From assembly GCA_037200925.1 (NCBI GenBank), contig JBBCGO010000001.1, positions 179,822 through 243,821 on the forward strand: a DNA stretch of 64,000 nt, in the 5' to 3' direction. Position numbers and translations under genes: made by a program. Below the pieces are notes generated by a model, which ran no database searches, was not told the origin of the DNA, and saw only the letters and a list, made by a program, of their open reading frames with translations. Position 1 is the stretch's first letter; the number at the start of each line of letters is the position of its first letter. This document shows positions 13,091-31,620 of this stretch, in pieces. The stretch is from Candidatus Doudnabacteria bacterium (GTDB lineage Bacteria; Patescibacteriota; Doudnabacteria; UBA920; O2-02-FULL-48-8).

Positions 13091-13118
13091 AACAACTAAT
13101 TATATTTTATATCTGGAC

Positions 13119-13535: not shown

Positions 13536-13540
13536 ATTTA

Positions 13541-13898: not shown

Positions 13899-14738
13899 CT
13901 ATTTTATATGCCAGACCCAAAACCCTTTTAGCTTCGGGTTTAGCCAGTTGTCAAATCCCTTGGTTTCAACGAAAATATGTTTGACATGCCAGTTTTTCAC
14001 TCCGTTTATATCCGCTGATTCAACAGGATAAATAATATGATAACCAAGCCTGCTGACCACTATATTGGGATCAACCTGACCCAGGCTGGCATTCATCACC
14101 GCTTTTTCCAATTCCGGCAGCAGCTGGCCTCGGCTTACAAACCCCAGATCGCCTCCCAACTGGCCTGTGACCTTGTCATCGCTTTCGGTTTTTGCCAGCT
14201 GGTCGAAAGACTGGCCGTTTTTGATCTGCGTTAAAATACTCGCCGCTTTGGCATAAGCATCAGCATTGGCGGTAAAATCGGAGTTATATTTCATCCGCAG
14301 CAACGCATCGTATACTTCCGGCTTAACTACAAATTGCGTAAACAAATTCTCGTTTGAATTGAAATCTTTTTCAAGCAAATTTTTGTATTGCTGCTCTTTA
14401 CCCGTTTTGTAAAAGTTCAATTCATCATTTTGGTTCGGGCTGCTATAAGAAACTTTCAGACTATCAAGTAACAGGCTTTCTTCTTTAACTTTTACTAGCT
14501 GGTCTGAAACTTTTTGCGCACTGGCATTTGTGTCCAATCTTTGGGCAATAATATGGGCTTGATCCCAGTAAGCAACGGAGATCTGGCCGCTGCCTATGAT
14601 AACTTGCGGATAGAGGTTTTTGAATAAAACCGAGACCGGATCGGAAAAATTGGTTCCATACGCCAAGAGCAGGGAAAGCAAAACCGCAGCAATTGCAACT
14701 GCGACCGGGTAGTGGATTTTTAAACGTTTTTTCTTCAT
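13899..14738 (-). CDS. PpiC-type (parvulin) peptidyl-prolyl cis-trans isomerase, membrane-anchored SurA/PrsA-like
   Basis: N-terminal TM; TGQLGGDLGFVSRGQLLPELEKAV...LGYHII parvulin motifs. Confidence 0.75.
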   Translation of the reverse strand: MKKKRLKIHYPVAVAIAAVLLSLLLAYGTNFSDPVSVLFKNLYPQVIIGSGQISVAYWDQAHIIAQRLDTNASAQKVSDQLVKVKEESLLLDSLKVSYSSPNQNDELNFYKTGKEQQYKNLLEKDFNSNENLFTQFVVKPEVYDALLRMKYNSDFTANADAYAKAASILTQIKNGQSFDQLAKTESDDKVTGQLGGDLGFVSRGQLLPELEKAVMNASLGQVDPNIVVSRLGYHIIYPVESADINGVKNWHVKHIFVETKGFDNWLNPKLKGFWVWHIK

Positions 14739-15112
14739 CGCCCGGACGTCTGGCTGAAAAAATAATTAAACCATTTTTTATAATTAGAGCCGCTGCCGGT
14801 CTTGGTTTGAGTGCTTGGATTTGTTTCATCTTGCTGAGGCAAACCGACCACATATTCGCCGTTTTTTTGCAGGCTCAATTTTTCCCGCGCGGCTTTTTCC
14901 TCATAATCCTGCGAACCGTAATATTGGATAAGAGAGCTCAACTGCTGGTTATCCTGTTTGATCTTTTGGACCTGATTTTCCAGCTTGGCGGTTTCTTTAT
15001 CCACTTGGTATTTCTGGATCAGGATTTTCGCCGCGAACACCATTACAAGCAACAGAACAATGCTCATGCCCCAGGTGGTCAGCCGCGATTTGAAAAAACC
15101 GTTCCAACTCAT
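14735..15112 (-). CDS. ftsB: Septum formation initiator (FtsB/DivIC family)
   Basis: 125 aa; N-terminal TM plus coiled coil (KLENQVQKIKQDNQQLSSLIQYYGSQDYEEKAAREKL). Confidence 0.7.
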   Translation of the reverse strand: MSWNGFFKSRLTTWGMSIVLLLVMVFAAKILIQKYQVDKETAKLENQVQKIKQDNQQLSSLIQYYGSQDYEEKAAREKLSLQKNGEYVVGLPQQDETNPSTQTKTGSGSNYKKWFNYFFSQTSGR

Positions 15113-15208
15113 GAGAAAAACGGGATTAATGTGAACAAGATCATGGCCAGGATCATGAATACTGCAAATATTATTATTACTTTTTGGAATTTTTTTCGAT
15201 TGAGCACG

Positions 15209-16981
15209 TTATTTTTTTAGAATGGCCAAAAATGCTTCTTGCGGGATGTCGACCTGGCCGATGCGCTTCAGGCGCTTTTTACCTTTTTTCTGCTTTTCCA
15301 AATGCTTCATTTTGCGCGTTACGTCCCCGCCATACAAACCCTTGGTCACATCCTTGCGCATGGCCGGGATCGTCTCACGGGCTATGATCTTACCGCCGAT
15401 CGCGGCCTGAACGGCAATTTCGAACTGCTGGCGGGGAATCAGGCTTTTTAATTTTTCGGCCAATGACCTTCCCTCACTTTCCGCTATGTCCCGATGAACT
15501 AGCATGGACAATGCATCGACTTTTTCGCCGGCCACCAAAATATCCAGCTTCACCAGATCTCCGATCCTATAGTCAAGCAACTCGTAATTCAGCGAGGCAT
15601 AACCTGAAGATACGCTCTTCAGCTTATCATAGAAATCTATGATGATGTTGGCAAGCGGCATTTCCGCTGTGATCAAAACCCGCTCATTGCTCAGATATTC
15701 CATATTCTTATAAATGCCGCGCCGGCCGGTGATCAAATCCAGGATGCCGCCGATATACTTTTGTGGCGCCAATATTTCTATATCGACCCAGGGCTCCTCA
15801 ATGCTTTCAAACAAAGACGGGTCAGGCAATTCGGCCGGCGTGTGGATGATCTTTGATCTGTGATTTTTCAGATTGATCTTGTATTCAACCGATGGCGCGG
15901 TCAAAACCAGATCCAAACCGTACTCGCGCGTTAATCTCTCCTGCACAATGTCCATATGCAAAAGCCCCAGAAAACCCGTGCGGAAGCCAAAGCCCAAAGC
16001 CGGGATATTTTCCGGTTCAAATTCCAACGCCGCGTCATTGAGTTTCAGCTTATCTATGGCATCGCGCAGCAGCGGATAATCATCGCCTGCAGTCGGAAAG
16101 ATAGACGCATAGACCATGGGTTTGATCTGCTTGTATCCCGGTAGCGGTTCAACTTTTGCCCCGGCAGTTGAGATAGTATCGCCAACGCGGGCTTTTCTGA
16201 CATCGCGAAGACCTGTGACAATATAGCCGACCTCGCCTGTGTTCAATTCTTTTGACGGAAAATATTTCGGATGGAAAAATCCGACTTCCAAAGCCTCTGC
16301 CGTGGTTTTGGTTCCGAAAGTTTGGATCTTCTCATTTTTTATTAATTTGCCGTCGACCACGCGCACAAATGTCACCACGCCGCGGTGCTGATCGTAAGTG
16401 GAATCAAAGATCAAAGCGCGCAAGGGCTTATCAGGATTTCCCGTCGGAGCGGGAACTTTGGCAATAACCGCTTCCAGAATCTTTTCCACTCCCTCGCCGG
16501 TTTTGCCCGAGGCATACAAAATTTCTTCATCCGTGAAGCCGAACGCTTTTTTGATCTCCTCCGCGGTTTTTTCACGGTCAGAATTCGGCAGATCAATTTT
16601 ATTTACCACCGGAATGATTTTCAAATTATGGGCCTGGGCCAAATGAATGTTGGCCAAAGTCTGCGCTTCAATTCCTTGAGTAGAATCAACCACCAAAATC
16701 GCGCCTTCACACGCTGCTAAGGAGCGGGAAACCTCGTACGTAAAATCCACGTGCCCTGGAGTATCAATCAGATTCAGAATATAACCCTTCCATTCCATGC
16801 GTACCGGCTGCAACTTGATGGTGATTCCCCGCTCGCGCTCCAGATCCATGGTATCCAGCAGCTGCTCTTTCATGTTCCGTTTTTCTACAGTTGAAGTAAA
16901 TTCCAAGAACCGGTCAGCCAATGTGGACTTGCCGTGGTCTATGTGCGCGATGATACAAAAATTGCGGATCTTGTCTTGCAT
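15209..16981 (-). CDS. lepA: Elongation factor 4 (LepA)
   Basis: IRNFCIIAHIDHGKSTLADR G-domain and LepA-specific C-terminus. Start taken at MQDKIRNF, not the upstream M of the 599-aa ORF. Confidence 0.95.
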   Translation of the reverse strand: MQDKIRNFCIIAHIDHGKSTLADRFLEFTSTVEKRNMKEQLLDTMDLERERGITIKLQPVRMEWKGYILNLIDTPGHVDFTYEVSRSLAACEGAILVVDSTQGIEAQTLANIHLAQAHNLKIIPVVNKIDLPNSDREKTAEEIKKAFGFTDEEILYASGKTGEGVEKILEAVIAKVPAPTGNPDKPLRALIFDSTYDQHRGVVTFVRVVDGKLIKNEKIQTFGTKTTAEALEVGFFHPKYFPSKELNTGEVGYIVTGLRDVRKARVGDTISTAGAKVEPLPGYKQIKPMVYASIFPTAGDDYPLLRDAIDKLKLNDAALEFEPENIPALGFGFRTGFLGLLHMDIVQERLTREYGLDLVLTAPSVEYKINLKNHRSKIIHTPAELPDPSLFESIEEPWVDIEILAPQKYIGGILDLITGRRGIYKNMEYLSNERVLITAEMPLANIIIDFYDKLKSVSSGYASLNYELLDYRIGDLVKLDILVAGEKVDALSMLVHRDIAESEGRSLAEKLKSLIPRQQFEIAVQAAIGGKIIARETIPAMRKDVTKGLYGGDVTRKMKHLEKQKKGKKRLKRIGQVDIPQEAFLAILKK

Positions 16982-17141
16982 GTTCCTTTTTAATGAATAG
17001 TGAGGCACTTTGCAAAATTAGCCTTCGCTTCCTTTTCCCCTTCAGCGAGGGCGACGCTTTGCAAAAGAATTGCGAGGCCTTTCAATGGCCGAGCACTTAG
17101 TCCGTATAAACGGACGTCTTTTCAAAGCGGTGCCCGAGCGC

Positions 17142-18755
17142 CTAGCTCCACCAGTTCCAAATTATATTGATCGGACGGCCGATCTTGTTTCCGGTCGTTC
17201 TAAGAAGTTTAACCAAATCATGGGTTTCTGCCAAGCCTTCGAGCCAGCCAATCCCCAAGTATGCCCCGGCGCCAATCAGGCCTGCACTGACTCCCTGTAT
17301 CAGCACGCCCCAATAGGTATGCATATTCACCAGAGGAGCTATCATATACAAAGAAACATAAGCCACTGCTCCGCCGATCAGGGACGCAATAATGATCTTC
17401 ATACAATTCTCGATCAGATATTCGTCGTGGATATTGCCCAAGCGGCGGTGCAGTTCCATGATCAGAAGCGCAAGATTGATGATGTTGGTCACCGAATAGG
17501 CCAGAGCCATGCCCGCGATACCCAGCCTGCCGACCAGATAATAAGTTACCAGAACATTTGATGCGATAGTGATAAACCCGATGACCACGGGAGTGACGGT
17601 ATTGTGCATGGCATAGAACGCCCGGGTGAACAAAGGGACCAGAGCCTGGGCAAAAAGCGAAATGCAAAACAATCCCAAAGATTCGGCCACGAGTCTGGTG
17701 TCGTCAAAAGTAAAGTGCGTGCCGGCGCCGATGCCCAAAACCAAGCGGACCACCTGGGCGCGCAGAACCAGCAGCAGGACGGACAACGGGATCATAAAAA
17801 ATAAGATCTGGACCGTGGTTTTAGCAAAGACATCCTTGAACGAGGCGTTGTCTTTTGTGTTGAACAGATCCGAAAGCAAAGGAAACACGGCAATTGCAAA
17901 CGGGATGGCAAAAACTCCAAGAAAAACAGCTTGCAGATTATTGGCATAATAAAACGCGGCAAGGGCGCCGGTGCCCAGAAATGAGCCGAATATCGTGACG
18001 ATCAAAGCGCTGATCGGCTCCGTGCCCATGGAAAATATCCGCGGCCAGTAAAGTTTCCAGAACTTGATGAACCCGGCATCGTGTCCGTTGATCCCGAAAG
18101 AGAACTTGAACCCTAGGCGGAAGATCTGAGGCACCTGGATCACAAACATGATCAAAGCTCCCAATACCACTCCCCAGCCTAAACCCGCAGGCCCAAAACG
18201 CGGATACAGGAACAACGCGCCAAAAATGATCGAAACATTATAAAACAAAGGAGCTGCGGCCATCAGGGCAAAGCGCTTATAAGTATTAAGCATGCTGGAA
18301 ACGATGGAAGACAGGGTCAAAAACAAAGGCGACAGCAGAAAAATTTTGGTAAAGAGCTTGGTCAGCTCAAAATCCGCACCCTTAAATCCGGGGGCGATCA
18401 GATGCACCAGCGGATTGATAAAAATATAAGCGACCGCGGTTAGGGCCAGCATCATCAGGATAGTGGTGTTTATGATGCTGGAAGCGATCTCGTCCGCTCT
18501 TTTCTTGTCCTGCAGAAGGTATTCGGAAAAAATCGGAATGAAAGCCACGGAAAAAGTTCCCAGAACCAGCAAATTATAAATAAAATCCGGGATGCGAAAC
18601 GCTGCAAAATAGACCCCGATGATCCTCCCTAAGGCGAACTGGTGGGCAAACACCGCGTCGCGGACAAAACCCATGATCTTCGTTAAAAGTGAAAACACCG
18701 CGATGATCACGGTGGCGGTTCCTATCTTATTGTCTTGCAGGGATTTAATATTCAA
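17142..18755 (-). CDS. murJ: Lipid II flippase MurJ (MviN)
   Basis: 537 aa, ~14 TM; N-terminal MGFVRDAVFAHQFALG...AFRIPDFIYNLLVLG signature. Confidence 0.9.
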   Translation of the reverse strand: MNIKSLQDNKIGTATVIIAVFSLLTKIMGFVRDAVFAHQFALGRIIGVYFAAFRIPDFIYNLLVLGTFSVAFIPIFSEYLLQDKKRADEIASSIINTTILMMLALTAVAYIFINPLVHLIAPGFKGADFELTKLFTKIFLLSPLFLTLSSIVSSMLNTYKRFALMAAAPLFYNVSIIFGALFLYPRFGPAGLGWGVVLGALIMFVIQVPQIFRLGFKFSFGINGHDAGFIKFWKLYWPRIFSMGTEPISALIVTIFGSFLGTGALAAFYYANNLQAVFLGVFAIPFAIAVFPLLSDLFNTKDNASFKDVFAKTTVQILFFMIPLSVLLLVLRAQVVRLVLGIGAGTHFTFDDTRLVAESLGLFCISLFAQALVPLFTRAFYAMHNTVTPVVIGFITIASNVLVTYYLVGRLGIAGMALAYSVTNIINLALLIMELHRRLGNIHDEYLIENCMKIIIASLIGGAVAYVSLYMIAPLVNMHTYWGVLIQGVSAGLIGAGAYLGIGWLEGLAETHDLVKLLRTTGNKIGRPINIIWNWWS

Positions 18756-18765
18756 GTGGATTCAT

Positions 18766-20856
18766 TCATTTAGTTATGACAAGCGGCCAAAAATCATCGG
18801 TGTTGGTCGCGGATTGAAAATTTATATTACTGCCTGAAGACTGAACTCCGGGCCCCAGCCATTTCGTCTGAAATTGGCCTAAGGATATACTCCCGGTGAA
18901 GCTGTAAGGCTTTGATCCTGATTGTTTTTGAACCAGCAGACTGTAAGACTGGGCATTGCTCAAAGCATCAGCGTTAATTTTAAACGGGAGCATATACGTC
19001 AGCGTGATGCTGCGCTCTTCCCCGGGGTCCGTGGCCAGCCAGCCTGCAAATTCCGTTTTTCCGGCTTCGGTCCTGACATAAACATTGGAATGCATTTCCC
19101 CGACGTCCCAAGCTGCCAGGTCAGGATCCGTGCGCATGCCCTTCGCAGTAGAGTCAAAATACTGGTAATCGTCAAAGCCCTGCGCTGAAACAAATTGGCT
19201 TCCCCTTGGCACCAGCACGCGCAAATAATCTTTGTTGCTGGCGTCCGCAGAGTTTTTCCGGTCAATTGTCAGAGTATTGATGATCGACCCGTCTGACAAG
19301 ATCTTGCTTTTCAGGTCAACGTTCTGATCCATGCTCAGATCGGTTTTAGTTCCGCCCAAATTGGAATTATTTACGGACAAATAATCGTAGTCCGTGGCCA
19401 GGACCTGACCGCCGAACCCCAGATCCTCGATCTGTTTTTCGGTAGCCTGATCTTTGGTATACAGGAGAACATTTCTTTGCCGCAAATTATCTTCAAAGAT
19501 CTGCAGGATCTGGATCCACTGGTCTTTGTTCATGCCCATCAACCGGTCCAAAAGTTGCGGGGCCGCGTCAGCCAGGAACTTTTTCGGCTGGTTCAAGATT
19601 TTATCATAGTCAACGGAAGTTTTAAACTGCACCAGCTGCTGAAAATTATCCGCGGTGAGCGCAACTCCGTAAGATGGCATATCGATAGGTCCGGTGAGCC
19701 TCAAGATGTCTTCAAACATTTTCGGCGTGGCCGTGATCACGCCATCGGCAGTTTCTCCGCCTTTTTCAAAAAAATACAGAAGTTTTTGGGCTGAAGTCGG
19801 AAAGTCGGCAAACCAGTTAGCGTCGCGGGTTCCCCAGCGCTTGATCAGCGGCTGCATGGGCCCCGGAGCCGCTATCTGCTCGTAGATCTGACCGTCGAGC
19901 TGGTAAATACTTTCGATCTTAAGTTTGGTGATCGCCCCGTTATCCGTTCCCAAAACCCCATAAGTCCCGATAAACCCGCCGGTGGCCCTTTCCTCATCGT
20001 AATTTTGGAAGATCAACAGGTAGGTTTTTTGCTTGCTGAATAAACCCAAGTACAGATCCTCCAGACCGATGAGCTTGTCCAGGATCGAATTAAGGTCCGA
20101 GACCTGCTGTTTGGCAGCCTCCAGCGTTCCCGAATAATCCTGAGGAACACTCCCGGCCTGATTAAATTGCCCGGAAGCGGAAACGACCAGATCGCGGCTG
20201 GCACTCAGCAGCTCACGGTTGGTTTTTATCTTATCGTTAAAATTCGCTGTTTCCACCCCTTTGCTGGAAACCTTCAGCTCATCGAACAAATTCAGAGCAT
20301 CGCTTAATTTGTTTCCGGCATTCGCCAATAATCCGGCCCCAGCCAGAACATGGTTCGCGGAATCGGCTACAGGCGCAACCCAGCTCAAAGCGCGGAAATC
20401 GTTCAATTTTTCCTGCGCCAGATTTACGTTGCCGCTGGCCGCATCAAACAATTGCTGAGCCGCGGCGAAGTTTTGCGTGCTCAAATTCTGTTCCGCCGTA
20501 TGCAGGTCTGTGTATGCGGAAGTGGCCGCGCCCAAAATCTCGCCGGAAGCTTTTTTTGCCTGCGACAGATAAACCAGGCCCTGCAGAACACCGATCAAAA
20601 TAATCCCGGCAAGGGCAAAAGAACTTATTTGGAACATTTGCCGGCTGTAATTCTTCCATTCAAACCGCTGTTTGGCAGTGAAGATCTTCGGTTTTATCAA
20701 TGCAGCCGCGGCTGTTTTTTCTCTGGCCCGGCTGACGGCGTACATGAGTTCGGAACTCATAACTTCCCGCTTAATGACATTCCGAACTTTGGCGGCAGGC
20801 TTGGCCTTCCGCTTCATGGGCCCCATGTCAGTTTTAGAGAATCTTCTGGCGTTCAT
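18766..20856 (-). CDS. Large membrane-anchored extracytoplasmic protein, DUF4012-like
   Basis: 696 aa; basic cytoplasmic N-terminus, single TM, Gly-rich core NYDEERATGGFIGTYGVLGTDNG reminiscent of DUF4012. The family label is from memory, not a search. Confidence 0.5.
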   Translation of the reverse strand: MNARRFSKTDMGPMKRKAKPAAKVRNVIKREVMSSELMYAVSRAREKTAAAALIKPKIFTAKQRFEWKNYSRQMFQISSFALAGIILIGVLQGLVYLSQAKKASGEILGAATSAYTDLHTAEQNLSTQNFAAAQQLFDAASGNVNLAQEKLNDFRALSWVAPVADSANHVLAGAGLLANAGNKLSDALNLFDELKVSSKGVETANFNDKIKTNRELLSASRDLVVSASGQFNQAGSVPQDYSGTLEAAKQQVSDLNSILDKLIGLEDLYLGLFSKQKTYLLIFQNYDEERATGGFIGTYGVLGTDNGAITKLKIESIYQLDGQIYEQIAAPGPMQPLIKRWGTRDANWFADFPTSAQKLLYFFEKGGETADGVITATPKMFEDILRLTGPIDMPSYGVALTADNFQQLVQFKTSVDYDKILNQPKKFLADAAPQLLDRLMGMNKDQWIQILQIFEDNLRQRNVLLYTKDQATEKQIEDLGFGGQVLATDYDYLSVNNSNLGGTKTDLSMDQNVDLKSKILSDGSIINTLTIDRKNSADASNKDYLRVLVPRGSQFVSAQGFDDYQYFDSTAKGMRTDPDLAAWDVGEMHSNVYVRTEAGKTEFAGWLATDPGEERSITLTYMLPFKINADALSNAQSYSLLVQKQSGSKPYSFTGSISLGQFQTKWLGPGVQSSGSNINFQSATNTDDFWPLVITK

Positions 20857-20859
20857 GAT

Positions 20860-21972
20860 CTAATCAATTTGTGAATTTGAAAAACGTGAAATATTCAGCA
20901 GGATCCCCATTGAGGCCAAACTGATCAGCAGCGAGGTTGAACCGTATGAGATAAATGTCAGGGGGATGCCGGTCAAAGGGATCAAACCGGTAATGCCTCC
21001 GACATTGATCAAAGCCTGCAAAATAAGCCAGCTGGTGATGCCCGCGGCCAAAAGCTTGCCGAATGTATCAGGCGCTGTGCGGGCGACTTTAAAACCCCGG
21101 TACCCCAAAAACAGAAACAGCAGCAGGATGACGCAAACCCGGATGAAGCCCAATTCTTCGGCCATGATGGCAAAGATGGAATCGCCTATCGGCTCCGGCA
21201 AATAACCGTATTTCTGCCGTGACTGGCCAAATCCCAGCCCCCACCACCCGCCTGAACCTATTGCCAGTTTGGCCTGCTGGATTTGATAAGAAATACCCTG
21301 AGTATCCGCGGTCGGGTCCAAGAATGCCAAAAATCTTTTTGCCCGATAAGGGGCGGCCTTCACCAATATCCACAATACCAGCAATGCAGAAGCTGCCGTG
21401 GCAAAAATATACCGCAAGCGCACTCCTCCGATAAAAAACATCACCGCTGCGATAGACGCTAAGACCAGCATGGTGCCGATGTCAGGCTCCAAAATGATCA
21501 ATCCCGCCACCACTCCGACGATCGCCAGGCTGGGCAAAAATCCGTAATACAGATCCTGGGCGTGGTGCTGGCGCTTATCAAACCAGCTGGCCAGATATAT
21601 GATCATCGCCAGTTTTATAAATTCTGTGGGCTGAAAAAGAAATGAACCGAAGTTGATCCAGCGCCGAGCTCCACCGACTTTAAATCCGATACCCGGGATA
21701 AGCACGGCCACAAGCAGGCCGATTCCGGCCAAAATAAGGAACGGCGCGATCTTTTGCCAAAAATGATAATCCAGCCTGGCAAAGATGTACATAAAGATCA
21801 AACCGGGCACTGCGCCCAGCAAGACCTGGCGGATAAAATAATAGTAGTTGTTGTGAAAGCGCTGATAGGACAATACTGTGGAAGCGGAAGACAAGGTCAA
21901 AAGCCCGATGGTCAGCAGGATCAGCACCAGCCACATAATATACTTGTCAACTTTTGGCAATGTTTTCGTCAT
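20860..21972 (-). CDS. ftsW: SEDS-family peptidoglycan glycosyltransferase FtsW/RodA
   Basis: 370 aa, 10 TM; conserved GGARRWI and periplasmic loop motifs. Confidence 0.85.
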   Translation of the reverse strand: MTKTLPKVDKYIMWLVLILLTIGLLTLSSASTVLSYQRFHNNYYYFIRQVLLGAVPGLIFMYIFARLDYHFWQKIAPFLILAGIGLLVAVLIPGIGFKVGGARRWINFGSFLFQPTEFIKLAMIIYLASWFDKRQHHAQDLYYGFLPSLAIVGVVAGLIILEPDIGTMLVLASIAAVMFFIGGVRLRYIFATAASALLVLWILVKAAPYRAKRFLAFLDPTADTQGISYQIQQAKLAIGSGGWWGLGFGQSRQKYGYLPEPIGDSIFAIMAEELGFIRVCVILLLFLFLGYRGFKVARTAPDTFGKLLAAGITSWLILQALINVGGITGLIPLTGIPLTFISYGSTSLLISLASMGILLNISRFSNSQID

Positions 21973-23192
21973 TTGCTGATTTCTTTTACAAATTGCTCGG
22001 CGCGTTCAGTCTCATTCTTGAACATGTCAAAACTGGAAGTTGCAGGAGAAAACAAGATCGTATCCCCGCTCACTGCCAAGGATCTTGCCTGAGTTAGGAT
22101 TTCCTGCATATTTTTGGCTCCTGTCAGAATTTTGCCGACAAAGCCTTTCGCGGCATTTAAAATTTTATCAGTCACCGCGCCTATCACAACCAGACCTTTC
22201 AGATTTTTGGCAGACTTTATTTTTTCCCCCAAAGCGCCGAAGTCCAAGCCTTTATCAAACCCGCCGACGATCAATATCAAAGGGGCATTGATGGCATCGA
22301 TCGCGGCGATCGTCGGGTCAATATTCGTACTGTAGCCATCATCGATAAAACTCACTCCGTTTATTTCCTTTACTTTGTTCAGCCGGTGCGGCAATGGTTC
22401 GAATTCGGCAACGGCTCTTCGAATGATCGGTTCCTCAATTCCCAAAAGCTTGGCGCAAGCAGCCGCCGCAGAAATATTTTCCAAATTGTGAGGCCCCAAA
22501 AGTTTTGTCGGATAGTCTGCGACATCCTTGCCTTCAAAAAAAATCTTCCTGCTCCCGCCCAGATCCTTAAACCATTTCGGCAGATTTTCGTGGAGAATAG
22601 CGAAATCTTTCTCCGACTGGAAAGCTATAATTGATGATTTCGCCGTAATATATTCCTCAACCGACTGGTGGTGATTCAGATGATCGGAAGTGATATTTAG
22701 AACAATTGCGATATGCGGGCTAAGATGCAGGTCCTGAAGCTGAAAACTGGACAATTCCAGGACAACGTAATCATTGAACTTCACGGAATCCAGGAATTCA
22801 AACGGATCGCGGCCGATGTTGCCGCCCAGCCAGACTTTTTTGCCGGCTGTTTCCAAAATTTTGGCGATCAAACTGGACGTTGTTCCTTTACCTTTGGTTC
22901 CCGTAACACCGATGATGGTTGCCGGACAAAGCTGGAAAAATAATTTGGTCTGGCTCGATATCTCAACGCCTTTTTTTTGGGCCTCCTGCACAGCATTTGA
23001 GAGCAAGGGAAGGCCGGGTGTGCGAAAAATCAAATTATAGTGGTCAAGCCGCCCTATAAGTTCATCCGGGTCCTTCCAGCCGTCGATCACGTCATAAGCT
23101 ACGTTGTTGATTGTCAGATATTCCGCCAATTTTTTATTGTTTACGCCCAAACCGACAACTGCTATTCTTTTGCCTTGCAAATTTTCCAGCAT
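21969..23192 (-). CDS. murD: UDP-N-acetylmuramoylalanine--D-glutamate ligase
   Basis: GVTGTKGKGTTSSL P-loop and Mur ligase central/C-terminal domains. Confidence 0.9.
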   Translation of the reverse strand: MLENLQGKRIAVVGLGVNNKKLAEYLTINNVAYDVIDGWKDPDELIGRLDHYNLIFRTPGLPLLSNAVQEAQKKGVEISSQTKLFFQLCPATIIGVTGTKGKGTTSSLIAKILETAGKKVWLGGNIGRDPFEFLDSVKFNDYVVLELSSFQLQDLHLSPHIAIVLNITSDHLNHHQSVEEYITAKSSIIAFQSEKDFAILHENLPKWFKDLGGSRKIFFEGKDVADYPTKLLGPHNLENISAAAACAKLLGIEEPIIRRAVAEFEPLPHRLNKVKEINGVSFIDDGYSTNIDPTIAAIDAINAPLILIVGGFDKGLDFGALGEKIKSAKNLKGLVVIGAVTDKILNAAKGFVGKILTGAKNMQEILTQARSLAVSGDTILFSPATSSFDMFKNETERAEQFVKEISK

Positions 23193-24748
23193 CAGCGTCT
23201 GATCACCGTTCCGGCTGTGCTTAAAATCTGTTTTGGGGTATAGCTTATCCGGCCGTTCACCACAACCATATCAATGCCTTCCGAGAACAGATCGGGATTG
23301 ACGTAATCAGCCTTGTCTGTGACCGTCTGCGGATCAAATACCACAATATCGGCAATGTTGCCTTTTGCGATCACTCCCCGATCAGCAATTCCGAGCAGGC
23401 TCGCGGGCTCGCTGGTCAATTTTTTGACCGCGCTTTCCCATTTCAGCAGTTTTTTCTCGCGGACCATTTTCAAAAACCTCGGCATGGTGCCGAAGCATCT
23501 GGGATGGAACAGCCCGGTTGATCTTTGGTTGATCCCGGCGCCGTCAGTGGCGATCATGGACAGAGGCGAGGCGCAAAACAGTTCAACCTGCTCCTGGGAC
23601 AAATTATGGTCAAAAATAGTGACCTGGGCCTTGGTTGCCGTGATAACGTTCAACAAAGCTTCTTCCGCTGAGACATTTTGATTCTGGGCGATAAGGCCAA
23701 GGGTTTTGCCCACAAAATTATTGTTGTTCCAAGCCTCAGCTACAATGATGTTCTTGAAATCCTGATCCTGGTCGCGCAGATAATCAGTAATTTTTCGCCG
23801 AGATATGGGGTCGATGGCCATTTTTAGGATCTGGTCTCTGCCACCTTCGTATGCCCATTTCGGCAAATAGGTATAAAGCACTGACCATGATGTGCTGTAC
23901 GGATAAACATCAAAGCTGATCTTCAGGCCTTTTTGATAAGCCGCCTCGAGCTTGCCTAACACGCTGTCAAACAGCGGCCAGTTCTTTTTGCCCCGGACTT
24001 TGATGTGCGAGATCTTGATCGGGATCTGATTCGCCGCGGCCAGCTCAATCACTTCATCAATGCTTTCAAGGATATGACTGGCTTCCGAGCGCAAGTGCAC
24101 GCTCAGATATTTGTTGGTTGGTTTTAAATTTCCCACGATTTCCTGAAGTTCTGCTATCGAAGAATTAACCTCGTGCGCGTAGATCAAACCCAAAGACAAG
24201 CCCAAAGCCCCGGCTGACAGCGCATCCTGCAAAGTTTTATCCATAATTTTAATTTCATCGCCGGTAAGCGATCGTACCTGATCGCCGGCGAGCCCCCGCC
24301 GCAGTGTTGCGTGCCCGACCAAGGTGCCTACATTCACGCCCAGCGGCATTGCGGACAGTATCTGCAAAAATTCAGGCATGGATGCCCAGTTCAGATTGAT
24401 GCCGGACAAATTATGCCATTTCTGAATGGTCTTGATCGATTCAGTATTCAGAAGCGGGGCCAATGATGCGCCGCAATTTCCGATGATGATCGAAGTTATC
24501 CCTTGCGACAGAAGGCTGGCCTGCTCCGGCTGGTCAAACAGGGTCCAGTAGGAATCCGAGTGGTTCTGGATATCAATGAAGCCCGGGGTCACGAATCTGT
24601 CCTGGGCATTGATCGTCTGCAGCGCTTTGCCGGATATATCCGCAGCCACCTCAACGATCTTTCCTTTTTCCACAGCCACATCCATTTTTTTCCCGGGCGC
24701 TCCTGTGCCGTCGATGACCGTGCCATTTTTGATGAGAATATCGTACAT
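23192..24748 (-). CDS. N-acyl-D-amino-acid deacylase (D-aminoacylase) family amidohydrolase
   Basis: 518 aa; IKNGTVIDGTG...DV.V..GKI..V...A...I.A..RFVTPGFIDIQNHSD metal-binding N-terminus and amidohydrolase-3 body. Translationally coupled to mraY and murD. Confidence 0.75.
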   Translation of the reverse strand: MYDILIKNGTVIDGTGAPGKKMDVAVEKGKIVEVAADISGKALQTINAQDRFVTPGFIDIQNHSDSYWTLFDQPEQASLLSQGITSIIIGNCGASLAPLLNTESIKTIQKWHNLSGINLNWASMPEFLQILSAMPLGVNVGTLVGHATLRRGLAGDQVRSLTGDEIKIMDKTLQDALSAGALGLSLGLIYAHEVNSSIAELQEIVGNLKPTNKYLSVHLRSEASHILESIDEVIELAAANQIPIKISHIKVRGKKNWPLFDSVLGKLEAAYQKGLKISFDVYPYSTSWSVLYTYLPKWAYEGGRDQILKMAIDPISRRKITDYLRDQDQDFKNIIVAEAWNNNNFVGKTLGLIAQNQNVSAEEALLNVITATKAQVTIFDHNLSQEQVELFCASPLSMIATDGAGINQRSTGLFHPRCFGTMPRFLKMVREKKLLKWESAVKKLTSEPASLLGIADRGVIAKGNIADIVVFDPQTVTDKADYVNPDLFSEGIDMVVVNGRISYTPKQILSTAGTVIRR

Positions 24749-24750
24749 GT

Positions 24751-25797
24751 TTATCTTCCGATTAAATTCACTGCAACTCCGATCAGCCCTCCGACTGCGG
24801 CAATCACCCAGAACCTCATAGTGACTTTTGTTTCGGGCCAGCCTTCGGCTTCAAAGTGATGATGCAGAGGAGAGGATAAAAATATTTTCTTGCCGGTCAG
24901 TTTGCGTGAAAGCACCTGCAACAGGGTTGAGCCTGATTCAAGCACCAAAACAATACCGATAATGGGCAAAACCGCCACGGAATTGGTCAGGAAAGCAATA
25001 ACGGCGAGCACAGTACCTAAAGACATGGCGCCTGTATCGCCCATGAAAAACCGCGCCGGAAAAATGTTAAACCAAAGGAATGCCAAAAGGCTTCCGGACA
25101 AAACCGCGGTCAGAGCGGCCAACTCGAACTTTCCCTGCATAAATGCGATCAAACCGTAGGATAAAAATGCTATAGCCAAAACTCCGCCGGCCAGGCCGTC
25201 CAAACCATCGGTTTGATTGACCGAAAAACTTGTGGCTACCACTATAAAAATAAATAAAGGCACATACCACCATCCGATCGTAAAATTGCCAAGGCCCGGA
25301 ATATGCAAAGAATCAAACTGCAATTTGTAATAAAACCAATAAGCCCCGATCACTGCCACGAGCGTGTACAATAAGATCCGATGCCTCATGCGCAGGCCTC
25401 CCCCTTTGCCTCCGCCGGTTCCCTTCACACCCAAATAGTCATCCAGCAAACCAAGCAAGGCGGCAGCGCCCAGTGCTCCCAAAGGCAAAAGAGTTTGCAT
25501 ACGCGTCAGAAAATTCAGCCGGTGGAAAAAACTGACGTGTGCAACGCGGTCCAGAAACCAAAAAACCGCAGCCATAGCAACAGTGGTAAGCCAGACCAGA
25601 ATACCGCCCATGGTCGGGGTCCCGGCTTTTTTCTCATGTAATTTGCTGTAAAAAGGCGTGTCGCCTTCAGCCCGGATCTTTTTACCGAATTTGTGTTCGT
25701 AGACAAAATTGGTAAAGATCGGGGTCAAACTCATCGCAACAATAAAGGAAATTGCAGCCAGGCTGAAGATCTTAATTACCGCCTCATTTATGGTCAT
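24751..25797 (-). CDS. mraY: Phospho-N-acetylmuramoyl-pentapeptide transferase
   Basis: 348 aa polytopic; TPTMGG, DD...D and HHH..EG motifs of MraY. Confidence 0.9.
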   Translation of the reverse strand: MTINEAVIKIFSLAAISFIVAMSLTPIFTNFVYEHKFGKKIRAEGDTPFYSKLHEKKAGTPTMGGILVWLTTVAMAAVFWFLDRVAHVSFFHRLNFLTRMQTLLPLGALGAAALLGLLDDYLGVKGTGGGKGGGLRMRHRILLYTLVAVIGAYWFYYKLQFDSLHIPGLGNFTIGWWYVPLFIFIVVATSFSVNQTDGLDGLAGGVLAIAFLSYGLIAFMQGKFELAALTAVLSGSLLAFLWFNIFPARFFMGDTGAMSLGTVLAVIAFLTNSVAVLPIIGIVLVLESGSTLLQVLSRKLTGKKIFLSSPLHHHFEAEGWPETKVTMRFWVIAAVGGLIGVAVNLIGR

Positions 25798-25862
25798 TTT
25801 GTGTTTCTAAATATCAAATTAGCTCATCAATTATACCACAAACTGTCAGTATTGACAAAATC

Positions 25863-25891
25863 ACAAAAAAGGAGTAAAATTATAAATTAGT
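25863..25891 (+). promoter_or_regulatory. Near-consensus sigma70 promoter (TTGACA-N17-TAAAAT) for the small GC-rich gene
   Basis: ttgacaaaatcacaaaaaaggagtaaaat. Followed by GGAGGAGGAGG and a GTG start at 25924. Confidence 0.6.
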
Positions 25892-25923
25892 ATCGTAGGC
25901 ATAGTTTCTGGAAGGAGGAGGAG

Positions 25924-26271
25924 GTGCGAAACCTTGTATTGGTTTCTCTGACAGTTCTGGTTGTGTCGTCGTTCTTCACGGCACTGTTTTCTCGCAAGAG
26001 GACAGAAGAAAGCAATTGGGCTTCGATCGTGTTCTGCGCCGACCTGTTCTTCGCCTTCGTTGGCATGATCATCGTTGGCTGGGCCAACGCTGCGGCGACA
26101 AACCAGTTCGCGAAGTACCAGGAAGGTTTCCCCGACGTGGACATGGGCGGCCTTCCAGTCGACGTCATCATCGGCAACATGCTGATCTTCTGTACTCCTC
26201 TGATCATATGGGGACTCGGCCGGCTCATAGGCGGCAGATTGAGACGCTCGCCGAGAACGATTACGATCTAG
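25924..26271 (+). CDS. Hypothetical small membrane protein (115 aa, ~3 TM), GC-rich
   Basis: GTG start with a strong Shine-Dalgarno site. GC ~55% with GC3-rich codons against the ~45% background. Own promoter and terminator. Confidence 0.55.
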   Translation: MRNLVLVSLTVLVVSSFFTALFSRKRTEESNWASIVFCADLFFAFVGMIIVGWANAAATNQFAKYQEGFPDVDMGGLPVDVIIGNMLIFCTPLIIWGLGRLIGGRLRRSPRTITI

Positions 26272-26312
26272 ACAAGCCTATCGACTGACCGCTCGGCCGC
26301 AACCTAGCACAA

Positions 26313-26348
26313 CCCGACGACATCTTGTCGCCGGGTTTTTCTTTTTGT
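26313..26348 (+). terminator. Rho-independent terminator
   Basis: cccgacgacatcttgtcgccggg hairpin followed by tttttctttttg. Confidence 0.6.
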
Positions 26349-26354
26349 TTCAAT

Positions 26355-27263
26355 TTACCACTTATAAACCGCAAACACCCAGTCCAAAAGCTTTTGAGTG
26401 TCTGCTTCCCGATTGTCGCTTCCCAGCACCACGGTCACGATCTGGTTGCCCCCGTGGTTATCCAGAATGATCAAGTTACCCATGGCTTTGGAAGTGAAGC
26501 CGGTCTTAATACCGGTTACTTCCGGGTCATCCAGCAAAAGTTTGTTCGTGGTCAAAAGCTGGTGCACGTATTTGCCGTCCAGGGAAGAAACCGAAGCCTG
26601 GCGCGTACCTACGATCTTGCGCAGTTCATCGTGCTTCAGAAATTCCTGCACGATCTTGATGAGGTCAAGCGAGTTGGAAAAATTCGCCTGGCTGTCGAAT
26701 GTATCCCAGCCCACGGGATTGGAAAAATGCGTATTCGCCAAATTCAGGTCTGTAGCTTCCTGATTCATCATTTCCGCAAATTTTTCGGGAGTGCCGGCCA
26801 CAAAATTGGCAAGCGCCAAAGCCGCGTCATTGCCGGAAGGGATAAGCATGGCGGCCAGCAGGTCGGAAACGGTGATCTTTTCGCCCTCAACCAGCCCCAC
26901 TGTGCTGCCGATCGGGGTTTCGTCGGCTTTTATTATCGTCACTACAGCATTGGGACCGACGTGATTGACCACGGTTAAGGCAGTCATCAGCTTGGTCAGG
27001 CTGGCTATGGGCAATTTTTCATCCAGATTATTGGAATAAAGAACAGTGCCCGAATCCAGATCATAAGCCAAAGCGGCACGGGCGGTCAGCTGCGGCTGGC
27101 TTAAATTGACTGCCATTTCCGGCGCAGTCTTTAAAGCATTATCGGCCGCTTGCGTGGAAATGCCGGCAACCACAGGTGTTTTTACTGCCTCTTTAGCAGG
27201 GTGAGGAAAAAATATCAAAGCCAGACTGATCCCCAGAGTTGTGTATAAAATTTTGTTTAACAC
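26355..27263 (-). CDS. D-alanyl-D-alanine carboxypeptidase (S11, PBP5/6-like)
   Basis: Signal/TM segment; SLTK (SxxK), SGN and KTG motifs in canonical order. Confidence 0.85.
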   Translation of the reverse strand: MLNKILYTTLGISLALIFFPHPAKEAVKTPVVAGISTQAADNALKTAPEMAVNLSQPQLTARAALAYDLDSGTVLYSNNLDEKLPIASLTKLMTALTVVNHVGPNAVVTIIKADETPIGSTVGLVEGEKITVSDLLAAMLIPSGNDAALALANFVAGTPEKFAEMMNQEATDLNLANTHFSNPVGWDTFDSQANFSNSLDLIKIVQEFLKHDELRKIVGTRQASVSSLDGKYVHQLLTTNKLLLDDPEVTGIKTGFTSKAMGNLIILDNHGGNQIVTVVLGSDNREADTQKLLDWVFAVYKW

Positions 27264-27373
27264 TTTGTTTCAGTTTTTAACTTCAACACCATTATTTTAG
27301 CATATTTTTGACAAAACATCCTTCAGAACTCTATAATACCCAGAGTTACTTAAGGCGGACGGAAAGGAAAAAC

Positions 27374-27700
27374 ATGGAAGTTACTCTAACAGACGCTAAC
27401 TTTGAAGCCGAAGTTTTGAAAGCGGACAAACCGGTACTTGTGGATTTTTGGGCGGAATGGTGCGGCCCCTGCAAAATGGTTTCCCCGGCAGTTTCGCAGA
27501 TAGCCGAAGAGATGAAAGATCACCTGAAAGTCGGCAAACTCAATGTGGATGAAAATCCCAAAACCACTCAAACATATCAGATATTCAGCATTCCGGCCCT
27601 GAAAGTTTATAAAAACGGGAAAATTCTGGGCGAAATGGTGGGCGCAATGCCCAAAGCCGTGATTGAAATGAAATTGAAGGCCATACTTGGGATAAGTTAA
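27374..27700 (+). CDS. trxA: Thioredoxin
   Basis: WCGPC active site; 108 aa from MEVTL. Confidence 0.95.
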   Translation: MEVTLTDANFEAEVLKADKPVLVDFWAEWCGPCKMVSPAVSQIAEEMKDHLKVGKLNVDENPKTTQTYQIFSIPALKVYKNGKILGEMVGAMPKAVIEMKLKAILGIS

Positions 27701-27721
27701 AGGCAAAAGATCAAAAAATAA

Positions 27722-27805
27722 ATCGCATTTGCGAGGAGTGAAACGACGAAGCAATCTGACCTTGGAATAGACTGCTTCGCTTCGCTCGCAGATGCGATTA
27801 TTTTA
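27722..27805. terminator. Long bidirectional stem-loop terminator between convergent trxA and the DUF458-like gene
   Basis: atcgcatttgcgag...ctcgcagatgcgat 14-bp arms with an inner gaagca/tgcttc hairpin; T-runs flank it on both strands. Confidence 0.5.
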
Positions 27806-27819
27806 TTTATTTTTACTTT

Positions 27820-28344
27820 CTATGTATGTCTATCAGCAACCGACGAGGCCCCGTAAGAATCCGGTTTGGTCTTGACCGCAAACCCGTTGCCTTTTATCAT
27901 GCCGACTATTTCGTGCATCATTTTCTTGGTCGCTCCGTTTGGTCCCACATCCACATGAATGGTCAGGTGAAAATCCGTTACATTCAAAATTTTAAGGCGC
28001 TCGATCAATTGTTCCGCCAGTTTTAAAGAATGGGTTGCTTCCTGAAATATCCGCTGGCGCAATGTGTGCAGTTTAGTTTCGTGCCTTTTTGACCAAAAAT
28101 AAATTCCGCCGCGGTTTTTGCGGTGGACTACTATAGCAGACACAAATTCCGCTTCCTCGCCTGCGGGCATGGAGTCAGTGCCGATTATAAGTTCGTATTC
28201 CAAAGCAGGTTCGTTCCCGATATATTCCAAAAGTTTTTCCAAAACTTTATCAAAATCCAACTGGCCGTGGGTCGGGCTTTTGAAGTCATTAAAAAAGAGA
28301 GTTTCCTCCCTTACTTCCACAGGCTTCATTTTAAGCATATTCAT
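27820..28344 (-). CDS. RNase H-fold protein, DUF458 (YkuK-like) family candidate
   Basis: LIIGTDS...AIVVHRKNRGGIYF...HLTIHVDVGPNGATK pattern recalled from DUF458; not verified. Confidence 0.4.
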   Translation of the reverse strand: MNMLKMKPVEVREETLFFNDFKSPTHGQLDFDKVLEKLLEYIGNEPALEYELIIGTDSMPAGEEAEFVSAIVVHRKNRGGIYFWSKRHETKLHTLRQRIFQEATHSLKLAEQLIERLKILNVTDFHLTIHVDVGPNGATKKMMHEIVGMIKGNGFAVKTKPDSYGASSVADRHT

Positions 28345-28415
28345 ATATTATTACTTTTCGGATTTTTTGGCAAAAAAAATGACCACTTTTCTGGCCGAAA
28401 AATGGTCAAACACGG

Positions 28416-28835
28416 TTAAGCCTCCTGACGCTCTTGCTTCCCGGCAGTCTCCCGCTCTTCTTCGCAGTCCACACATCGAACGGCGAATGGTAATGCACGA
28501 AGACGCTTCTCCTCGATTTCTTCTCCGCACTCCAGACAGTAACCGTAAGCATCTTTCTCGAGCCTGGCAATCGCTTCATCGATCTTGGCCAGCGTTTCCG
28601 TTTTCTGCTGAACAAGCGCGAACTCGAGCTCTTCGGCCATGTTATCTGACGCTGCGTCGAAGTTATCGGCGGACTTTGCGCCGCCTTGTTCTATTCGGCC
28701 GCGCCGCTGTGCTCCGACTATCAGTTGCAGCTCGTCACGGCGGCCGGTGAGGATCTTCCGAAGTTCTTCTTGTCGAGTCGAAAGTCCCTTTGGTTGAGTC
28801 CGCGGTATTTCCTTTGCCTTAGGATGCTTTGCCAT
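28416..28835 (-). CDS. DksA/TraR-family C4 zinc-finger protein
   Basis: Coiled-coil region then CLECGEEI...CVDCEE four-Cys finger. GC ~54%. SD GAGGTGAT. Confidence 0.75.
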   Translation of the reverse strand: MAKHPKAKEIPRTQPKGLSTRQEELRKILTGRRDELQLIVGAQRRGRIEQGGAKSADNFDAASDNMAEELEFALVQQKTETLAKIDEAIARLEKDAYGYCLECGEEIEEKRLRALPFAVRCVDCEEERETAGKQERQEA

Positions 28836-28841
28836 ATCACC

Positions 28842-29264
28842 TCATTCCGGTCTTGGCCTGAACAACGGCAGATCGCGTGAGACATAGCCTTCGTGCAACT
28901 GCCGGGCCAGTCTCTGGGCCAGCTTCTTTTGCTCCAGCAGATGACAGGCACCGCATCGTTTGAGCAAAGGCTGCACGGCCAGGTCTTCCAGACGCAGTTC
29001 TAACAGATGGCATTTTTTGCACTTGCCGTACTTACCGGTCTGCAGGTCGCCCTGCGCTTTTACCAGCTCTGCCAGCTTGCCGGCAAGTGCGGTGAGTAAG
29101 GCCCGGCGCCCCTCCGGTTTTGAAGCGTAAGGGTTTTGACCCTGCTCAATCAGCCAAATTTCCCGTTCGGTATCTGCAACGGCCTGGTGGAGTATTATGC
29201 ACAAGGCCTTGAAACGGCGCTCCTCCATAGGCGGAGGAAACGCAAAACAACCTGCTATTTGCAT
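28842..29264 (-). CDS. Hypothetical zinc-ribbon protein with duplicated C-x2-C-H-L-L-E motifs
   Basis: Start reset to MQIAGCF at 29264, preceded by GGGAGGA; the ORF-track listing runs to 29321 from an upstream start. CKKCHLLE...CGACHLLE. GC-rich. 6 nt upstream of the dksA-like gene, so a likely operon. Confidence 0.5.
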   Translation of the reverse strand: MQIAGCFAFPPPMEERRFKALCIILHQAVADTEREIWLIEQGQNPYASKPEGRRALLTALAGKLAELVKAQGDLQTGKYGKCKKCHLLELRLEDLAVQPLLKRCGACHLLEQKKLAQRLARQLHEGYVSRDLPLFRPRPE

Positions 29265-31619: not shown

Positions 31620-31620
31620 T

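Follow-up and report, generated by a model that had tools for sequence, protein, structure and literature searches.

The minus strand of a 64,000-nucleotide (nt) stretch of a Candidatus Doudnabacteria bacterium genome (assembly GCA_037200925.1, contig JBBCGO010000001.1, positions 179,822 to 243,821; hereafter the window) carries a division and cell-wall (dcw)-type operon with two conserved, functionally uncharacterised members: a D-aminoacylase-family amidohydrolase gene between mraY and murD, and a gene for a protein of the Pfam family DUF4012 between ftsW and murJ. At a probability of about 0.45, we regard this arrangement as an ancestral cell-wall operon of the Doudnabacteria with two fixed accessory genes, one of which would supply D-glutamate and the other handle glycans through an LCP-like domain, and not as a disrupted dcw cluster.

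A cell-wall operon conserved across Doudnabacteria

Six open reading frames (ORFs) on the minus strand follow one another at spacings of −4 to +10 nt: mraY, for the phospho-MurNAc-pentapeptide transferase (24751-25797; TIGR00445, 211.8 bits against a cutoff of 192); the amidohydrolase gene (23192-24748; 518 amino acids (aa), MEJ0021171.1), identified by an Amidohydro_3 match and by relatives in the Protein Data Bank (PDB); murD, for the D-glutamate-adding ligase (21969-23192; TIGR01087, 317.7 bits against 212); ftsW, for the SEDS peptidoglycan polymerase (20860-21972; TIGR02614, 377.4 bits against 337.5); the DUF4012 gene (18766-20856; 696 aa, MEJ0021168.1; PF13196, 89 bits against a threshold of 28 over residues 276-410); and murJ, for the lipid II flippase (17142-18755; TIGR01695, 306.5 bits against 235.6). 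This order and strand had been proposed in an initial annotation of the window and are borne out, with five of the six products passing hidden Markov model (HMM) thresholds. The start/stop overlaps given there for every junction from mraY to ftsW were found between the amidohydrolase gene and murD (1 nt) and between murD and ftsW (4 nt), whereas mraY and the amidohydrolase gene are separated by a 2-nt gap. The short gaps reported on either side of the DUF4012 gene were measured at 3 nt after ftsW with the 696-aa start, which is also the start used by NCBI (or 42 nt if the cluster representative's 683-aa start is taken), and at 10 nt before murJ; a further 133 nt separate murJ from lepA.

Genomic context was looked up for five amidohydrolase orthologues, and a MurD-anchored metagenome scan, which did not presuppose the extra genes, added two Doudnabacteria-type loci. 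Scanning a genome collection with MurD as the single query, through patterns that proved too specific, gave one irrelevant match, from Cyclobacteriaceae. The same block was present in seven of seven other Doudnabacteria genomes (loci L001, L004, L009, L010, L011, L012 and L013), with amidohydrolases 58–70% identical to that of the window. It is longer than the six genes first annotated, running from an S11 D-Ala-D-Ala carboxypeptidase gene (26355-27263) through lepA, divIC and a gene for a PrsA-like peptidyl-prolyl isomerase (PPIase; 13899-17008), in the order thioredoxin (divergent), S11, mraY, amidohydrolase, murD, ftsW, DUF4012, murJ, lepA, divIC and PrsA-like PPIase. The S11 gene lies ahead of mraY in all Doudnabacteria loci and in two loci of Parcubacteria (L105 and L106), and the thioredoxin gene (106–107 aa) keeps its place and orientation in L001, L004, L009, L010 and L011. 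Similarly, lepA comes next after murJ in L031 as well as in every Doudnabacteria locus, and the succession of divIC after lepA and of the PPIase gene after divIC is also conserved. L031, from a more distant lineage, retains mraY, amidohydrolase, murD, ftsW, DUF4012, murJ and lepA in this order; its amidohydrolase and DUF4012 protein are 45% and 32% identical to those of the window. More than 120 orthologue clusters were found for each extra gene, with identities of 56–100% (amidohydrolase) and 42–100% (DUF4012), and nearly all of the named clusters belong to Doudnabacteria or Patescibacteria. Because the gene order recurs in many independent genomes, it is not due to chance; comparison of synteny across the seven Doudnabacteria genomes and L031 rules out a strain-specific insertion, and the two extra genes are built-in members of the operon, as the initial annotation had supposed.

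The amidohydrolase gene was also found between mraY and murD in Parcubacteria. Two Parcubacteria-type loci (L105 and L106) read S11, mraY, amidohydrolase, murD, ftsW, murG, gltX and M23 peptidase, and a third on a shorter contig (L067) begins within mraY and keeps the same order through gltX, where the contig ends. In Niyogibacteria (L092) the order is mreB, mreC, an unassigned gene, amidohydrolase, ftsW, murG, gltX and M23, and a Parcubacteria relative (L093, CP066691.1) is without the amidohydrolase gene. The Parcubacteria and Niyogibacteria enzymes are 37–43% identical to that of the window and have its motifs in common. The gene after ftsW is the only difference by lineage, being murG in Parcubacteria and DUF4012 followed by murJ in Doudnabacteria and L031. 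Wall neighbours thus accompany the amidohydrolase gene in three arrangements, so its link to wall synthesis survives rearrangement; on this comparative evidence, the enzyme is an old and widespread companion of wall-synthesis genes in the Candidate Phyla Radiation (CPR). As a separate observation, gltX and the M23 peptidase gene stand directly after murG whenever this region was seen (L067, up to the end of its contig at gltX, L092, L093, L105 and L106), which makes this a mixed wall and translation operon.

The dcw cluster of Escherichia coli (L008; mraZ-rsmH-ftsL-ftsI-murE-murF-mraY-murD-ftsW-murG-murC-ddlB-ftsQAZ) shares with the operon described here the order mraY, murD, ftsW, the common orientation and the tight packing, but in the window the amidohydrolase gene splits mraY from murD; the uninterrupted order mraY-murD-ftsW-murG is kept in L019, L029 and L045 of the MurD-anchored scan, several loci of which are likely CPR. 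The canonical cluster further differs in having murG and murC after ftsW instead of DUF4012 and murJ, murF ahead of mraY instead of the S11 carboxypeptidase gene, and ddl and ftsQ within the cluster, whereas here they lie ~40 kb from the operon. None of mraZ, rsmH, ftsI, murE and murF was found in the window. At one compared locus (L017), a Cu-oxidase_4 gene (laccase-like, YfiH-type) occupies the place between mraY and murD.

The DUF4012 protein between ftsW and murJ

The product of the DUF4012 gene had been described as a Gly-rich exoprotein. Its glycine content is 7.2%, which does not merit the first term, and it is a membrane protein rather than a free exoprotein: a cytoplasmic, Lys/Arg-rich N-terminal tail (20 Lys or Arg against 5 Asp or Glu in 74 residues) is followed by a single hydrophobic segment at residues 73-100. 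The remainder is predicted to form an extracytoplasmic ectodomain behind this N-terminal membrane anchor, as in the LCP phosphotransferases. AlphaFold models of the full protein (pLDDT 85.3, pTM 0.78) and of residues 270-696 (pLDDT 90.8, pTM 0.90) show a helical stalk at ~100-273, an alpha/beta DUF4012 core at ~276-480 and an all-beta domain, a beta-sandwich, at ~490-696. The family has an invariant motif, FQNxDExRxTGGFxGTYG, and invariant residues E288, R290, R344, D345, E364 and K425.

In these models the DUF4012 core appears to resemble the LCP fold. Foldseek matched the protein to the LCP protein YvhJ (3nxh; E value 8.6 × 10−4, probability 0.99), with coverage of the core judged by secondary-structure content and not by superposition. 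Judged against a seven-sequence LCP alignment and LCP structures, the order of secondary-structure elements in the models is probably the same as in LCP proteins. The known LCP phosphotransferases (Cps2A, 2XXP; Staphylococcus aureus LcpA, 6UEX; Bacillus subtilis TagT/TagU/TagV, 3MEJ, 6UF6 and 3NXH) likewise combine an N-terminal anchor with an extracytoplasmic alpha/beta domain; the fold match to DUF4012 was obtained by two methods, and both families are associated genomically with polyprenyl-linked glycan machinery. The two differ in that the arginine signature of LCP proteins (GxDxR, RSD, PRD, SRxR and RQxRQ in the seven-sequence alignment) is absent from DUF4012, whose invariant motif is a different one and whose architecture adds a helical stalk and, at the C terminus, a beta-sandwich.

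Several results weigh against an LCP relationship, beginning with the manner in which the coverage of the Foldseek match was judged. Comparison with Pfam gave no LCP (PF03816) match even at an E value of 10, a search of the PDB with the DUF4012 profile by hmmsearch gave no match at the same value, and the LCP Arg-rich pyrophosphate site is not recognisably conserved. Profile alignment by hhalign was negative against a single LCP sequence and not significant against the seven-sequence LCP profile, built from plasmid records (probabilities of 2.4% and 0.3%); the best segment, itself non-significant, was a strand-helix-strand unit pairing DGVIa.TPk.FedlL.ltGPI.M with D.yv.inm...lVdAvGgv.v. With the sequence tests all negative, the protein was not filed as a member of the LCP family.

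Outside the CPR, on Streptomyces and Rhodococcus plasmids, DUF4012 genes lie inside Wzy-type polysaccharide clusters, where their neighbours encode a tyrosine autokinase, a low-molecular-weight phosphatase, an O-antigen-ligase-family protein, a flippase-like protein and sugar-nucleotide enzymes. On a Eubacterium eligens plasmid the DUF4012 gene lacks neighbours of this kind at close range; a partial polysaccharide-biosynthesis gene lies ~7.5 kb away at the edge of the locus. Streptococcal cps loci carry an LCP gene (cpsA) between the priming transferase gene and wzz. That position is held by the DUF4012 gene BL105A_0406 in the exopolysaccharide (EPS) cluster of Bifidobacterium longum 105-A (PMC5412050). 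The family was previously designated fam000574 and reported as enriched in CPR and Gram-positive bacteria and as envelope-related (Meheust et al. 2019; PMC6744442). The Gram-positive proteins share the Pfam domain with the protein studied here but are encoded in exopolysaccharide clusters, whereas here the gene is fixed between ftsW and murJ.

Given these contexts and the place of the gene between those for a polymerase and a flippase, the most economical reading is that the DUF4012 protein would be an ectoprotein that binds or processes a polyprenyl-pyrophosphate-linked glycan. Anchored by its N terminus, it would carry the LCP-fold alpha/beta domain and the beta-sandwich on a helical stalk outside the cell, and would act at the outer face of the membrane beside FtsW and MurJ, for example by attaching a secondary polymer to nascent peptidoglycan. 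A serious alternative, though a less likely one, is that the protein is instead a non-enzymatic bitopic scaffold of the divisome that positions or regulates FtsW and MurJ, in the manner of FtsQ/DivIB, FtsN or the pedestal of class B penicillin-binding proteins (PBPs). Its topology of N-terminal anchor, long helical stalk and globular ectodomain resembles that of such proteins, its gene is tightly packed between ftsW and murJ with divIC in the same block, and the relation to LCP proteins is undetectable at the sequence level. However, the invariant charged residues listed above cluster in the core, a pattern more typical of a ligand or catalytic site, and outside the CPR the family is found in polysaccharide clusters and not in division clusters.

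An LCP-like ectodomain would be the first structural lead for DUF4012, a family widespread in CPR, Actinobacteria and Firmicutes, and the operon puts the family in a definite functional context, next to the genes for the lipid II flippase and the polymerase. If the lead is true, these proteins would represent a new class of enzymes handling polyprenyl-linked glycans.

The amidohydrolase between mraY and murD

Provision of D-glutamate for MurD is the most likely role of the amidohydrolase, as judged from the position of its gene and the chemistry of its family. A glutamate racemase gene (murI), confirmed by Pfam in L044 (Asp_Glu_race) and recognised in other loci through phmmer homologues, lies directly beside murD in 11 of the 80 loci of the MurD-anchored scan (L015, L022, L023, L026, L028, L037, L044, L054, L061, L068 and L069). 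In L028 and L044 the racemase gene takes the amidohydrolase's slot, the order being mraY-(x)-murI-murD-ftsW-murG as compared with mraY-amidohydrolase-murD-ftsW, although racemase and hydrolase are unrelated in family and chemistry. No murI was found within 8–10 kb in any amidohydrolase locus. Furthermore, alr and ddl are encoded in this genome, so that the supply of D-alanine is already covered. The shared slot, the absence of murI from amidohydrolase loci and the independent provision of D-alanine are the reasons for which D-glutamate is preferred.

The amidohydrolase matches Amidohydro_3, and its best solved relatives are D-aminoacylases (9g5m, E value 1.6 × 10−70; 1m7j, 1 × 10−66; 3gip, 4.8 × 10−61), of which 3gip is an N-acyl-D-glutamate deacylase; homology extends over the full length, in aligned stretches at residues 2-291 and 334-518. 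Cummings and co-workers (2009) reportedly found that the last of these enzymes, Bb3285, also cleaves L-Xaa-D-Glu dipeptides. Active-site residues, whose mapping had been suggested in the initial annotation, were placed in Alcaligenes faecalis D-aminoacylase numbering from the PDB alignment and checked in an alignment of 59 orthologues (56–81% identity). The beta-site metal ligands C92, H218 and H248 and the catalytic Asp D402 are invariant in all 59, as are Y190, K250, Y282, Y284 and R417, the anchors of the acetamido group and alpha-carboxylate; the Lys/Tyr/Arg anchors were equated with residues of OngB and of the A. faecalis enzyme (AfDam) by motif position (YPY and HPR), and the Ser that is conserved behind YPY has no clear counterpart. 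The roles of metal ligands, catalytic Asp and substrate anchors follow published work on the D-aminoacylase family (PMC12017989, PMC12149444). In the HxH motif the first His has been lost. Neither a hydrophobic segment nor a signal peptide was found, so the enzyme is predicted to be cytoplasmic.

Compared with the characterised D-aminoacylases (A. faecalis, 1M7J; Bordetella bronchiseptica Bb3285, 3GIP; a D-acylase, 9G5M; and OngB, 9KB1), the enzyme is homologous at E values of 10−60 to 10−70 and shares with the D-aminoacylase and subtype V enzymes the Cys/His/His beta-site, the catalytic Asp, YPY, the Lys, the Arg of HPR and an inserted mobile domain after strand 7. It differs in being ~35 residues longer, in belonging to a ~520-aa branch and in carrying Gln, or in relatives Thr, for the first His of HxH. 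OngB, a deacetylase of GlcNAc1A, works in a catabolic pathway of oxidative chitin degradation, whereas the window enzyme is encoded in a peptidoglycan operon. Domain fusions were considered as a clue to function among 150 amidohydrolase representatives and set aside, as the long proteins are tandem amidohydrolases and not informative.

Taken together, these features suggest a metal hydrolase that acts in the cytoplasm with one metal, at the beta site, and whose substrate would present a free alpha-carboxylate on a D-configured, N-acylated carbon. We infer that it would free a D-amino acid for the precursor pathway, most likely D-glutamate for MurD, from N-acyl-D-Glu or from salvage compounds of the L-Ala-D-Glu type, and would thereby stand where other lineages have glutamate racemase next to murD. 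As a hydrolase needs a pre-formed D-Glu derivative, this would be salvage rather than synthesis.

A number of observations weigh against this role. In L092 the amidohydrolase gene adjoins a gene on the mreC side and ftsW, not murD. The protein misses the curated family threshold (NF006560, the best NCBIfam model, gives 151 bits where 340 are required), so that, of the HMM confirmation called for in the initial annotation, the DUF4012 assignment and the Amidohydro_3 match stand while the amidohydrolase falls under the NCBIfam cutoff. The HxH motif reads Q61-N62-H63, with the Gln invariant in Doudnabacteria, and in Parcubacteria it is T-(N/S)-H, with Thr for the first His. An exhaustive search of 1.84 billion representatives returned 2,885 relatives at E values of 10−30 or below; the ~45 representative clusters closest to the window protein have Leu, Thr, Gln, Asn or Ser for the first His and mostly keep the other catalytic positions, whereas the next ~93 have canonical HxH, which places the window protein in a distinct branch of a ~520-aa D-aminoacylase-like family. 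As the relative OngB is inactive once either His of HxH is changed to Ala, the activity of the enzyme may be altered or lost. The change could mark a purely mononuclear enzyme or an altered mechanism. Finally, the residue that sets specificity (L298 in AfDam, R295 in BbDam, Q298 in OngB) was sought in the window protein and dropped: the loop of the inserted domain that carries it is not alignable to the characterised enzymes, so no substrate side chain is readable from the sequence and none of the three known specificities (hydrophobic, D-Glu and sugar acid) is assignable.

The enzyme nonetheless keeps the machinery for an N-acyl-D-amino-acid substrate, and the comparative evidence favours D-glutamate supply over the lineage-specific peptidoglycan editing that had been proposed for it. 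Under the latter, cytoplasmic carboxypeptidase or dipeptidase activity would be directed at the C-terminal D-Ala of UDP-MurNAc-pentapeptide, D-Ala-D-Ala or recycled tetrapeptide, or the L-Ala-D-Glu bond would be cleaved. The Lys/Tyr/Arg anchors and the metal site would suit any N-acyl-D-amino-acid terminus, the gene adjoins several wall genes (mraY, murD, ftsW and mreC) and not murD alone, and a second D-Ala-specific hydrolase, S11, is encoded in the same block. Yet the degradation of the product of MurD, MurF or Ddl in the cytoplasm would be futile without a recycling pathway, of which none was seen; no Mpl-like or LdcA-like recycling genes lie nearby in the Pfam scans of the window, and the positional parallel with murI would be left unexplained. 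We therefore consider editing of the stem peptide unlikely.

It is less probable still that the enzyme has no wall role and, like lepA and gltX, is only a passenger in the highly expressed housekeeping operon that a compact genome contains. Translation genes do occur in the conserved blocks (lepA in Doudnabacteria, gltX in Parcubacteria), and compact CPR genomes have mixed operons; however, a wall neighbour is kept in three arrangements (mraY/murD, mraY/murD with murG, and mreC/ftsW), the gene is always inside the wall genes and never at their edge, and apart from the cell wall there are few uses for N-acyl-D-amino acids.

A non-catalytic or regulatory pseudoenzyme, such as a sensor of D-amino acids or precursors that binds a Mur enzyme or MraY, is very unlikely. 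The first His of HxH is Gln, Thr, Leu, Asn or Ser throughout the nearest clade, 16 of the 45 nearest representative clusters have another residue, mainly Asn, in place of D402, and OngB is inactivated when either His of HxH is changed to Ala (PMC12017989). Nevertheless, the invariance of metal ligands, catalytic Asp and anchors in the 59 Doudnabacteria orthologues is the pattern of a selected active site. Moreover, D-aminoacylase-type enzymes need the beta-site metal only, and a second metal at the alpha (HxH) site is inhibitory (PMC12017989, PMC12149444); the lost His belongs to this dispensable alpha site.

Carried further, D-glutamate supply by the amidohydrolase would mean that Doudnabacteria and many Parcubacteria make their D-glutamate without a racemase, through hydrolysis of N-acyl-D-Glu or L-Ala-D-Glu-type fragments scavenged from, for example, the wall of a host, while DUF4012 would form a divergent LCP-type branch working with FtsW and MurJ; we advance this wider proposal tentatively and think it unlikely to hold as a whole. 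If true, it would describe a salvage-dependent step that ties wall synthesis, and hence growth, to the host. CPR bacteria (Patescibacteria) account for a large part of bacterial diversity and are mostly not growable without hosts, and their host-derived needs are largely unknown. A hydrolase fixed between mraY and murD in two major CPR groups is a concrete, testable candidate for a host-dependent wall step, and two uncharacterised genes fixed in a CPR wall operon point to still unknown steps in wall building. Literature searches on D-aminoacylase in CPR, on DUF4012 and on racemase in Parcubacteria and CPR returned a description of neither operon association and no fold assignment for DUF4012.

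MurG and the surrounding genes

As the initial annotation had noted, neither murG nor murC follows ftsW, where DUF4012 and murJ are found. Pfam scans of the larger ORFs of the window (every ORF of at least 230 aa) revealed no GT28/murG, murC, murE, murF or ftsI, and the gene calls for ~8.6 kb past its right end (within L006) included no murG or murC. The wall genes of this genome are scattered, with alr, ddl and ftsQ ~40 kb from the operon and just past the right end of the window, and the absence of murG from the operon thus says little about the rest of the genome. A search with the MurG of L067 gave 120 matches listed, all of them Parcubacteria-type at 55% identity or more, among which a Doudnabacteria MurG could not have surfaced.

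The suggestion that the two genes offer an alternative to MurG-coupled steps finds no support in the Parcubacteria loci. MurG with both GT28 domains follows ftsW in L067, L092, L105 and L106, and since the amidohydrolase gene stands in the same operon as this canonical murG, its product is no substitute for MurG. Neither extra gene encodes a Glyco_transf_28 or Glyco_tran_28_C domain, and the DUF4012 protein, predicted to lie outside the membrane, has no glycosyltransferase domain in Pfam and no match to a glycosyltransferase-like fold. Neither extra gene replaces MurG; a peptidoglycan made without the GlcNAc transfer step, for which the lack of a GT28 gene among the scanned ORFs and right-flank gene calls would speak, is extremely improbable given the presence of FtsW, MurJ and the S11 carboxypeptidase, each of which points to ordinary lipid II.

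The genes that flank the six-gene operon in the conserved block were assigned as follows. Upstream of mraY lies the S11 D-Ala-D-Ala carboxypeptidase gene (PBP5-like; minus strand; PF00768, 1.7 × 10−48), and beyond it the divergent thioredoxin gene (27308-27700, plus strand; PF00085, 6.7 × 10−32) marks the upstream edge of the block. Downstream of murJ on the minus strand are lepA, for EF4 (15209-17008; TIGR01393, 895 bits), the divIC/ftsB-like gene for a septum formation initiator (14735-15112; PF04977, 4.8 × 10−12) and the gene for the PrsA-like parvulin PPIase (13899-14738; PF00639, 1.8 × 10−19), which is the last of the block. In another Doudnabacteria genome (L001 and L002; 17534-19753), lepA encodes 739 aa as compared with ~590–599; its GTPase domain is interrupted by a PDDEXK_3 nuclease domain, as if a mobile element had inserted into the gene.

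The spacer between the S11 gene and mraY (25798-26354) measures 557 nt in the window as compared with 66–187 nt in relatives, and gave no Pfam or Rfam match and no similarity to any locus compared. Each of its strands has a strong promoter-like site (minus, 25858-25830; plus, 25852-25880). The minus-strand site, TTGTCA-17-TATAAT with TG, agrees with the consensus at 11 of 12 positions as a pattern match only and is situated 33 nt upstream of the mraY start. A 113-aa ORF in the spacer (25887-26228), with no family match and no counterpart in relatives, was treated as spurious, and a 115-aa ORF there likewise had no family match. A scan of positions 13000-29000 against Rfam detected two tRNAs and nothing else. 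Within the operon, MurD is short, at 407 aa compared with 408–457 aa in the other loci examined (408–432 aa in Doudnabacteria); its N-terminal Rossmann-like domain falls under the Pfam threshold (MurD-like_N, 24.5 bits against 27), and the TIGR01087 match begins at residue 49.

The wall and division genes of this genome are split into several mini-clusters. A second envelope cluster (59898-62623, continuing in L006) encodes a second GT4 (MraY/WecA-like) transferase, a GT2-like protein and two PMT_2 (GT39-like) membrane glycosyltransferases, and further upstream in it are HIT, a UMP-kinase-like gene, ftsQ (POTRA), ddl, alr and serS. Elsewhere in the window, an 818-aa fusion of glucose-6-phosphate dehydrogenase (G6PD_N, G6PD_C) and 6-phosphogluconate dehydrogenase (NAD_binding_2, 6PGD) is encoded on the minus strand at 45828-48284; a similar 809-aa fusion is present in Parcubacteria CP066691.1 (L093). 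Two paralogous three-gene MacB-type export modules, each with an HlyD-like adaptor, an ABC ATPase and a MacB_PCD/FtsX permease, lie ~17 kb apart in opposite orientations (29701-33117, minus; 49726-53379, plus). An 846-aa type IV secretion coupling-protein-like ATPase (TrwB/VirD4, TraG-D_C; 37182-39722, minus) has a conserved counterpart close to this region in other Doudnabacteria (L001, with DUF8128).

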